A DNA stretch of 33,548 nt. It comes from Escherichia coli. Lineage in GTDB: Bacteria > Pseudomonadota > Gammaproteobacteria > Enterobacterales > Enterobacteriaceae. The notes under the pieces were generated by a model. The model was not told the origin of the DNA. It did no database searches and worked only from the letters and a program-made list of their open reading frames with translations. The DNA is taken from the NCBI RefSeq assembly GCF_003334815.1, contig NZ_QOWO01000040.1. One strand, written 5' to 3'. Within the stretch, counting starts at the first letter, position 1. Each line of letters opens with the position of its first letter. The position numbers were made by a program, and so were the translations under genes. Shown here piece after piece: positions 18,199 through 19,674 of this stretch.

Positions 18199-19293
18199 AT
18201 GGCTCAGGGTTTTTTCGTTAAATATAATTCTACCGTTATGGATTCGGTAGATAAAATCAGCTCCAGTTATCAAACACAATTTGCTAATGATATTATGTCG
18301 TTAGTGACGGTATCGGTTACGTTATATGTACTATGGAAAGGATATCAAATACTTGCCAGTAAAACTCAGACGCCCTTGCAGGATTTAGTATGGGATCTAT
18401 CAAAATTTGCAATCATAATCATGTTTATAACCAATGCGGATGGGTATTTAACTGCGGCTACTGATGCGTTGCAAGGCATGAAAGATGGTTTTTCTGGAGG
18501 GGTGAGTGTCTGGCAAACTTTAGATAACTTATGGAAAAGTACGCAAAATCTTGGTGCGGAAATATACTCTTTAGATAAATCAACATATGTTAAAGATCAA
18601 GGTGTAGTTGGACAGTTTTTAATATGGACTGGCTCGCTTATTTTAATGGCTGTTAGTGTGGTTGTTTTTTTAACAGCAGATGTAACGATGAAACTCCTGA
18701 TTATTACAGCACCGATATTTATCTTTTGTCTCATGTTTGGTTTTATTCGGAGCATGTTTAATAATTGGTTACAATCGTTATTCTCCAGTATTCTGACAGT
18801 TCTATTTGCCAGTTTAGTGATTCGGATAGCAATGGATTTTCAAGGGATGATCCTTTCCCATGCTATTCGTGCTGCACAAACAGGGAATGTAAATCTTGTA
18901 TCTACAGGTGCTATGGGCTTTATGGCTGGTTTTTTGGGGGCTTTATTGGTTCTTATAGCTAAAGGTTTTGCTGTCCAGTTAGCAGGTGCAGGTGTTGAAG
19001 GTGCTGTTCAGGGCGCAGCCATGATGGGGCTGGGTGCTGCGGGTATGGCTACTGGTAAGTCTCTGATGCTTGGCGGTCGTGCTGGTTTAGGTTTTGGCTT
19101 AGGGATGGCCGGAAGAACGGGCATGAATTCTTTATCAGGGAAAGCAGGGAATCTGATGGGGCGTGGTGCGAGAACAGCCGCTGAATGGGCGGGTGAAAAG
19201 GGATATCAGGCGCTGGCTCCGACAGGTGCTTTGGGGATGAAGGCGAGAAGACTTGCATCCCTGGAAAAAGCACGAGCGAGGAATGCCGCATGA
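18199..19293 (+). CDS. pilX6: VirB6-like polytopic inner-membrane protein
   Basis: Multiple TM helices, Gly/Ala-rich C-terminus, operon position. Confidence 0.7.
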   Translation: MAQGFFVKYNSTVMDSVDKISSSYQTQFANDIMSLVTVSVTLYVLWKGYQILASKTQTPLQDLVWDLSKFAIIIMFITNADGYLTAATDALQGMKDGFSGGVSVWQTLDNLWKSTQNLGAEIYSLDKSTYVKDQGVVGQFLIWTGSLILMAVSVVVFLTADVTMKLLIITAPIFIFCLMFGFIRSMFNNWLQSLFSSILTVLFASLVIRIAMDFQGMILSHAIRAAQTGNVNLVSTGAMGFMAGFLGALLVLIAKGFAVQLAGAGVEGAVQGAAMMGLGAAGMATGKSLMLGGRAGLGFGLGMAGRTGMNSLSGKAGNLMGRGARTAAEWAGEKGYQALAPTGALGMKARRLASLEKARARNAA

Positions 19294-19469
19294 ATATAAT
19301 GAAACGTTTTTTTTATGTGATGTCCCTGAACTGGATACTGACGTTTGTTGATAAACATATCACCTCCGGATGGAGCAGGAAGAGAAAGCTAATAACCCAG
19401 CTTATTATTTTAATCACGGGAATTACCTTATTTAAGGTCTTAGGTGGAATCAGTCAGAGCTGGTTGTGA
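19290..19469 (+). CDS. Small ORF (59 aa) overlapping the virB6 stop, one hydrophobic segment
   Basis: ATGA overlap with upstream gene; below track cutoff. Confidence 0.3.
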   Translation: MNIMKRFFYVMSLNWILTFVDKHITSGWSRKRKLITQLIILITGITLFKVLGGISQSWL

Positions 19470-19470
19470 C

Positions 19471-19674
19471 ATGCTTCATTATTTTGTCATGATACTTTAT
19501 TTTGTCCTAATCCTTCTTTTAGGAGTGTTTACCTGCTTCGCAGGAATAAGACTTGGTTTAGGGCTTGCGGGGAAATGGAGAAAGGGTATGGATCTTCGCT
19601 TTTTGCTTCTTATTGGTGGGATTCTTTTTCTTCATCTTGGCCTTTATCTCTTAAAGGTGTTCGTGAACGCTTAA
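19471..19674 (+). CDS. Small two-TM membrane protein (67 aa)
   Basis: ATG directly after the previous stop; track ORF 19444..19674 is the same frame. Confidence 0.4.
   Translation: MLHYFVMILYFVLILLLGVFTCFAGIRLGLGLAGKWRKGMDLRFLLLIGGILFLHLGLYLLKVFVNA

Follow-up and report, generated by a model that had tools for sequence, protein, structure and literature searches.

The DNA considered here is a window of 33,548 nucleotides (nt) from Escherichia coli (contig NZ_QOWO01000040.1 of assembly GCF_003334815.1). It is an IncX4 plasmid backbone whose VirB-type type IV secretion system (T4SS) carries two small open reading frames (ORFs) between virB6 and virB7. The first, ORF-A, is a genuine gene under purifying selection. 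It represents an older, conserved family, and the second, ORF-B, is a later insertion between ORF-A and virB7 that is confined to IncX4. From the letters of the DNA, an original prediction had placed a 59-amino-acid (aa) ORF over the virB6 stop codon, followed by a 67-aa protein with two transmembrane (TM) segments, both ahead of a VirB7-like lipoprotein. That arrangement was confirmed in each respect. The same prediction treated the two ORFs as equivalents and suggested that such small membrane proteins often act in entry exclusion or as pilus accessories. The equivalence did not hold, as the coding status of ORF-B is less certain than that of ORF-A, and an exclusion role is unlikely for either one. 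The genes in question occupy the following positions.

18199-19293, + strand: virB6 (pilX6), 364 aa, TrbL/VirB6 family, from the ORF list; its stop overlaps the start of ORF-A.
19290-19469, + strand: ORF-A, 59 aa, a basic (+7) membrane protein predicted to form a helical hairpin.
19471-19674, + strand: ORF-B, 67 aa, a predicted two-TM hairpin; 76 aa if read from a GTG at 19444.
19687-19815, + strand: virB7 (pilX7), a 42-aa lipoprotein with the lipobox ISGC; its stop overlaps the virB8 start.
19808-20494, + strand: virB8 (pilX8), 228 aa, annotated as a virB8 family protein.
13161-13376, + strand: eex, a 71-aa entry-exclusion lipoprotein of the EexN family; it overlaps the end of pixR (12871-13164).

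The case for ORF-A begins with its relatives. A tblastn search of PLSDB with ORF-A returned all IncX4 plasmids, along with weak matches in plasmids of Arsenophonus nasoniae and Yersinia pestis, and these weak matches map exactly to the virB6-virB7 junction of IncX-like T4SSs. The reciprocal search with the Arsenophonus protein returned the IncX4 ORF at E = 1e-4 and the IncX7 plasmid pJARS35 at 6e-3. Amino acid identity to ORF-A is 75% in a metagenomic lineage (P0012; contigs L012-L014), 44% in IncX7 pJARS35 and 30% in Arsenophonus. Further members of the family are a second IncX7-like variant (P0028, on L017) and a 94-aa long form on contig L026. The start codon overlaps the virB6 stop as ATGA in the window, in L012, in IncX7 (L015 and L017), in Arsenophonus (L009) and in L026. 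All of these lineages have virB7 downstream apart from L026, a short contig that continues into a toxin-antitoxin pair instead. Extra sequence between ORF-A and virB7 is found only in IncX4 and its sister lineage L012. As a side observation, the pair on L026 is YafQ/RelB and follows directly after the ORF-A homologue (2001-2546).

Twelve columns are invariant among five aligned homologues (alignment A3): K5, S12, W15, T25, G27, W28, S29, K33, Q37, L41, G44 and K49. The family core is an ITxGWSRxKK-type motif within a helix-basic loop-helix protein of about 57-61 aa. A hidden Markov model (HMM) built from this alignment finds L026 at E = 1e-4 and every other member of the family at 1e-26 to 1e-34. 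Selection was estimated by the Nei-Gojobori method as the ratio of non-synonymous to synonymous substitution rates (dN/dS). The ratio is 0.15 between the window and L013 (dS 1.09) and 0.21 between the two IncX7 variants. Neighbouring genes fall in a similar range, with values of 0.20 and 0.04 for virB6 and 0.18 for virB7. Because the protein is conserved at the same junction in divergent plasmids and shows dN/dS of 0.15-0.21, ORF-A lies beyond what chance would produce.

The family is narrowly distributed. The ORF-A profile was searched exhaustively against 1.84 billion representative proteins, and only the clade of IncX4, IncX7, Arsenophonus and two metagenomic lineages was found, with fragments of it. 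A degenerate-pattern scan of GTDB representative genomes found no relatives, and an exact 24-mer of ORF-A had no match in JGI metagenome contigs. We also compared the junctions of VirB6 relatives down to about 55% identity, leaving out contig L020 (the source of P0025), which looks error-ridden. Contigs L022, L023 and L027 have no ORF-A; there virB7 directly follows virB6 and overlaps its stop. ORF-A is likewise absent from L024 and from IncX1. In a neighbour-joining tree of VirB6 the carriers of ORF-A are not cleanly monophyletic, with Arsenophonus falling outside a group that holds two non-carriers. There has therefore been at least one loss or a second gain, or else the tree is distorted by VirB6 mosaicism. 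By this distribution ORF-A appears to be an accessory rather than a core component of the T4SS.

Other small genes occur in the T4SS clusters of two of the lineages without ORF-A. In IncX1 the virB6-virB7 gap is 126 nt and holds an unrelated hydrophobic mini-ORF of 25-31 aa, MEGDLIMSVDTILNVLFIINGLVAIYFLCSD, that overlaps the virB6 stop (L010 3039-3134; L011 2793-2888). Of the 212 matching PLSDB plasmids, 211 conserve this mini-ORF at 95% or more, and none of the records listed has a feature of its own for it. On L024 (GCA_054862965.1), a virB6-bearing contig, a Phd/YoeB toxin-antitoxin pair lies between virB5 and an 81-aa ORF with no Pfam match (623-1125); the VirB6 cluster of this contig is named for Yersinia pseudotuberculosis.

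The full-length start of ORF-A is well marked. The strongest Shine-Dalgarno (SD) pairing in the neighbourhood belongs to 19290 (GAGG, -8.0 kcal/mol). RefSeq places the start at 19320, an internal ATG that gives 49 aa and has no SD, and the ATGA-coupled 59-aa start is the one conserved across lineages. The N-terminal segment of the protein is moderately hydrophobic; a basic loop follows, and then the one clear TM segment, at the C-terminus. AlphaFold2, run with the five-sequence alignment, predicts a helical hairpin with helices at residues 2-24 and 30-57 and a mean predicted local distance difference test score (pLDDT) of 74. Some records annotate ORF-A as a hypothetical protein, certain of them at the full 59 aa, and the closest known entries are the hypothetical proteins WP_227648764.1 and WP_013572658.1 (the latter from pJARS35).

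A published counterpart most likely exists. The pilX operon of the IncX4 plasmid pHNSHP23 runs cds9, pilX1-6, cds8, pilX7-11, taxB, trbM, so that cds8 sits between pilX6 and pilX7 (Yi et al. 2022, mBio, PMC8725589). In the same study cds8 rose about 13-fold on over-expression of PixR, and it is missing from the 18 transfer-essential genes defined by high-density transposon mutagenesis (PMC8725589). We equate cds8 with ORF-A because the only coding sequence (CDS) in the RefSeq copy of pHNSHP23 between virB6 and virB8, a 49-aa hypothetical protein starting at the internal ATG, reads in the ORF-A frame. That paper gives the position at the junction and the induction by PixR, and it contains no analysis of the gene, its family, its distribution or ORF-B. 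No published description of the ORF-A family, the junction synteny, the selection on it, its patchy distribution or ORF-B was found in the literature searched. ORF-A itself is already on record as a hypothetical protein, most likely cds8.

Neither ORF belongs to a described family. ORF-A and ORF-B had no significant match in Pfam, NCBIfam, PHROGs or PADLOC, and in NCBIfam no family reached E <= 1. A DUF308 match to ORF-B at E = 0.06 was treated as noise. The ORF-A alignment profile found nothing with E < 0.01 among PDB sequences, Rfam gave nothing significant on 19000-20000, and a search of the rest of the window found no paralogue of ORF-A or ORF-B.

ORF-B begins with an ATG 2 nt past the ORF-A stop and spans the gap from that stop to the virB7 SD exactly. 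Two strongly hydrophobic segments flank a basic loop, and AlphaFold2, from the single sequence, predicts a helical hairpin with helices at 2-32 and 39-66 and a pLDDT of 81. Every one of the 442 IncX4 records of PLSDB contains it and no other record there does, and a large protein collection holds only its IncX4 variants. ORF-B is not annotated in the 80 PLSDB records listed by two protein searches or in the 4 IncX4 records opened, and no feature lies under the ORF-B match among the 40 matches listed of the 442 PLSDB records. Possible origins by duplication were tried and rejected. As a diverged copy of ORF-A it gives an hhalign probability of 2%, and the ORF-A HMM misses it. As a copy of the Gly-rich C-terminal part of virB6, its protein score is reached in 64 of 1000 shuffles and its DNA score in 317 of 500. 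As a pilin paralogue it gives no BLASTP alignment to PilX2 (14316-14693).

Several features of the ORF-B sequence suggest that it is translated. T makes up 24% of first, 58% of second and 45% of third codon positions, and a second-position share of 58% is reached in about 1 in 10,000 dinucleotide shuffles. A two-TM ORF of at least 67 codons arises in about 1% of shuffles. Nine distinct substitutions are seen among IncX4 variants; 6 are synonymous and 3 non-synonymous in the ORF-B frame, and the synonymous counts in the other two frames are 1/9 and 2/9 (P 0.01-0.025 if the neutral synonymous fraction is taken as 0.25-0.30). Two natural deletions, independent of each other, remove 18 nt and 12 nt and keep the frame. 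The 18-nt deletion (19479-19496) is bordered by a direct repeat, TTATTTTGTC, which is consistent with replication slippage, and it marks an IncX4 sub-lineage that includes the ETEC4089 plasmid and MSB1_3B plasmid 5. The confident AlphaFold2 hairpin points the same way. On this evidence ORF-B is probably coding, and we regard its translation as likely.

The most probable of the alternatives that we weighed accepts ORF-A as a gene and denies that ORF-B is one. The 200 nt in question would then be spacer DNA rich in T and poor in A, or a remnant in decay, in which two frames are open by chance. The open frame of ORF-B is not significant by its length, since shuffling the dinucleotides of the spacer yields a stop-free stretch just as long in 6-8% of cases. 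Two of the three frames are open, the second being stop-free for 70 codons (19470-19682) with a 35-aa ORF from an ATG at 19575-19682. Fewer than 0.1% of shuffles show two frames open; the T-rich second codon position of ORF-B explains the second frame as a by-product, and we do not take it for a second gene. Homologues are also lacking outside IncX4. In IncX7 and Arsenophonus the ORF-A stop abuts virB7, hence there is no ORF-B. The L012 lineage has a shorter spacer in which a collinear frame, at about 27% aa identity to ORF-B in a hand alignment, carries a TGA at its fourth codon. Against a spacer stand the codon-position bias, the excess of synonymous changes in the ORF-B frame and no other, the two deletions in multiples of three and the exact fit between the ORF-A stop and the virB7 SD. 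We consider a non-coding ORF-B somewhat unlikely, though it is the alternative to be taken most seriously.

If both ORFs are expressed, what would they do for the plasmid? Both may be dispensable inner-membrane accessory subunits that tune VirB6 or the assembly of the inner-membrane complex, a proposal that we hold with about equal belief and doubt. An accessory role is plausible given the translational coupling to virB6 and virB7, the induction of cds8 together with pilX and its absence from the genes scored as essential for transfer. Donor cells would produce both proteins together with PilX6/VirB6 and PilX7. Once in the inner membrane, the proteins would have their basic loops (SGWSRKRK in ORF-A, GKWRKG in ORF-B) on the cytoplasmic side, as the positive-inside rule suggests, and would serve the T4SS by tuning its assembly or efficiency without being required for transfer. 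Most plausibly, ORF-A would bind or stabilise the polytopic VirB6 channel protein through its conserved Trp, Gly and Gln positions. The conserved residues of ORF-A cluster in the loop and in the membrane-embedded helix (Q37, L41, G44), a pattern that we infer to be the one expected of a helix-packing partner of a polytopic membrane protein. PilX6/VirB6 is the obvious candidate for that partner because of the translational coupling to virB6.

Several points weigh against this proposal. The mechanism is assembled from gene order, coupling and topology rules. No sign of co-variation links ORF-A to VirB6; the VirB6 of pSH146_32 differs at 85 non-synonymous sites and ORF-A is identical there. This disfavours contact between ORF-A and the variable patches of VirB6, and leaves the conserved parts of VirB6 as possible contacts. 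The dispensability of cds8 amounts to its absence from the list of essential genes, and a gene of 150-180 nt offers few sites for insertion; the identity of cds8 with ORF-A is itself drawn from position. For ORF-B, the selection statistics draw on nine substitutions, the frame is absent or degenerate in sister lineages, and the SD pairing is weak at both candidate starts (-3.9 to -4.6 kcal/mol). Finally, a 1-nt deletion shifts the frame and truncates ORF-B in the complete plasmid p50579417_5. Such frameshifted copies, the weak pairing and the want of an annotated feature under any of the 40 listed PLSDB matches also favour the spacer described above.

A broader idea takes the accessory proposal further. 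The junctions form a nested series, with neither ORF (L022, L023, L027), ORF-A only (IncX7, Arsenophonus), ORF-A with ORF-B (IncX4), ORF-A with a decaying ORF-B (L012) and an unrelated hydrophobic mini-ORF (IncX1). The virB6-virB7 junction could thus be a cradle in which small membrane genes are born and lost, and ORF-A and ORF-B could be regulatory micro-proteins that bind VirB6 and gate or tune its channel, or that add a second, inner-membrane layer of exclusion, possibly aiding the unusually efficient spread of mcr-1 by IncX4 plasmids. We offer this as a speculation that is unlikely to hold.

The VirB6 proteins themselves are variable. Two strongly divergent alleles (364 and 359 aa, with 85 non-synonymous differences) occur on otherwise near-identical IncX4 backbones. 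The differences cluster at residues 1-30, about 120-150 and about 210-240 (window compared with L001, L021, L013 and L022), and the variable patches are mosaically shuffled across IncX4, IncX7 and metagenomic lineages. This pattern looks like recombination at specificity-determining regions.

The entry-exclusion gene of this plasmid lies elsewhere. The product of 13161-13376 matches the EexN family NF033894 at 67.5 bits, against a cut-off of 33. Published work identifies this gene as the eex of IncX4, places it upstream of pilX1 there and between pilX5 and pilX6 in most IncX groups, and reports that IncX4 Eex is 33-51% identical to other IncX Eex proteins (PMC8725589). In our comparison, IncX1 and Arsenophonus have EexN at the virB5-virB6 junction, and IncX4 and IncX7 have it beside a LuxR-type regulator. 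EexN/TrbK proteins (NF033894) resemble ORF-A and ORF-B in being small, in lying in or beside VirB-type operons and in being dispensable for transfer. They differ in being lipoproteins with a lipobox and in where their genes lie, which is beside pixR in IncX4 and IncX7 and otherwise at the virB5-virB6 junction. Neither ORF-A nor ORF-B has an HMM match to this family, a lipobox or the gene position of eex. ORF-A has no cysteine, and the sole cysteine of ORF-B (VFTC, residue 22) is not part of a lipobox, and natural variants have Tyr or Arg in its place. All ORF-A-bearing lineages with examinable surroundings (IncX4, IncX7 and Arsenophonus) carry EexN. Since EexN is encoded elsewhere, and in every such lineage, an exclusion role for ORF-A or ORF-B is unlikely. 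We also considered ORF-A as a stand-in for a missing Eex in IncX7, where Eex is given as 'NA' in Table S6 of PMC8725589, and rejected this on account of an annotated EexN on pJARS35.

The eex gene overlaps the pixR stop (ATGA) and lies upstream of the published PixR-dependent pilX start; the order on IncX7 pJARS35 is the same, with a LuxR-type regulator followed by EexN. Because of this upstream position, exclusion may be expressed independently of the repressed transfer operon.

A second, inner-membrane exclusion system has to be weighed separately. TraS of F and Eex of SXT/R391 are hydrophobic inner-membrane proteins functionally tied to the VirB6/TraG homologue, and ORF-A, ORF-B or both might act like them in plasmid-bearing recipients, recognising the VirB6 of the donor as a second exclusion or immunity factor. 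The ORFs adjoin virB6, the usual donor-side target of exclusion proteins (PMC12624023; bioRxiv R6K paper), and, as would be expected of exclusion genes, they seem not to be required for transfer. Between IncX4 and IncX7 the identity of ORF-A is 44%, compared with 81-83% for the more slowly evolving virB6 and virB8; ORF-B diverges very fast from one lineage to the next, and the mosaic patches of VirB6 are typical of specificity regions. These features are outweighed by others. The lineages that could be examined already have EexN, and no similarity was detected to TraS, to SXT Eex or to any other exclusion family. ORF-A does not follow the two VirB6 alleles. Its conservation is concentrated in the predicted cytoplasmic loop and the membrane core, and only about 5 poorly conserved residues would face the periplasm. 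TraS and SXT Eex, moreover, are polytopic proteins of roughly 140-170 aa, far larger than ORFs of 59-67 aa. We therefore judge such a factor to be quite improbable.

It is very improbable that the ORFs are a self-contained hydrophobic peptide module such as a type I toxin, or a cis-acting RNA, with no relation to the T4SS. Type I toxins are typically small hydrophobic peptides of such a size (50-70 aa), and IncX-type plasmids do carry genes of this sort, one being dinQ as annotated on pJARS35. The two ORFs, however, are tied through overlap or coupling into a single long operon that has one transcription start, and they keep their place relative to virB6 and virB7 across lineages. No Rfam family matches them, and promoter or terminator signals around the ORF-B region are no commoner than in shuffles.

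The accessory proposal has loose parallels in other transfer systems. TraQ and TrbI of F-type systems and IcmT of Dot/Icm are small, lineage-restricted and mostly non-core membrane proteins of transfer operons that modulate assembly or pilin handling. The likeness is one of analogy only, as those systems are MPF_F or MPF_I and the one here is MPF_T, and there is no sequence relationship. Mature VirB2-type pilins likewise consist of two hydrophobic helices and a short basic loop. ORF-B, the one of the two ORFs that was aligned, has no detectable similarity to the VirB2 pilin PilX2, and both ORFs lack the long signal peptide and any NCBIfam or Pfam pilin match.

The setting of the two ORFs is typical of its plasmid group. 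Positions 19200-19830 (631 nt) are 100% identical to many plasmids of about 33 kb of IncX4, MOBP and MPF_T type, including pSH146_32 and pCROD2. The genes around the ORFs encode a fused VirB3-VirB4, VirB5, VirB6, VirB8, VirB9, VirB10, VirB11 and the coupling protein, the set of an IncX pilX/VirB-type operon. In identical plasmids virB6 is annotated as a type IV secretion system or TrbL-VirB6 protein, and its homologues carry PF04610. The virB8 product matches the VirB8 model NF010439 at E = 1e-20, yet falls under the curated cut-off. The ORFs between virB6 and virB7 are packed into one operon by overlaps or by spacers of 2-12 nt, and Cappable-seq of pHNSHP23 placed the single transcription start of the pilX operon 42 bp upstream of cds9 (PMC8725589).

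The lipoprotein downstream of ORF-B is VirB7. It has a lipobox, overlaps the virB8 start and carries the conserved C-terminal motif LPSDVSGxLEPINxSQVI, of which LPSDVSGxLEPIN is common to the VirB7 proteins of the window, IncX7, L022, L023 and Arsenophonus. Homologous lipoproteins of 42-49 aa precede virB8 in IncX7, Arsenophonus, L022, L023 and L027. The 42-aa protein had no HMM match in the NCBIfam search; PilX7 is listed in Table S6 of PMC8725589. Most RefSeq IncX4 records have no annotation for virB7/pilX7 (19687-19815). In two records the locus tags skip three slots between virB6 and virB8 (e.g. RS26035 to RS26055; NZ_CP024861.1, which is L025, was compared with L001 and L003), and this jump suggests that an earlier annotation had three small CDSs there which were subsequently removed.

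IncX4 plasmids are among the chief carriers of mcr-1 colistin resistance, and the annotation of their transfer machine still leans on distant models. For mutagenesis and structural work on this machine the parts list is now corrected: ORF-A is conserved and selected, ORF-B is probably translated, virB7 is missing from most RefSeq records and eex lies elsewhere. ORF-A adds a new small, lineage-restricted accessory family to a well-known machine, which is useful for annotation and mutant design and will not surprise a specialist. Should binding of ORF-A to VirB6 be borne out, a minimal T4SS would have a micro-protein subunit specific to its lineage, and we know of no described example of such a subunit. 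If ORF-A does nothing measurable, the finding becomes routine small-ORF bookkeeping.

The pilX operon holds one further small gene. Its first ORF, cds9 (13554-13730), encodes 58 hydrophilic residues and had no match in the NCBIfam search; in the published work complementation of a cds9 deletion failed, and the deletion itself abolished transfer (PMC8725589).

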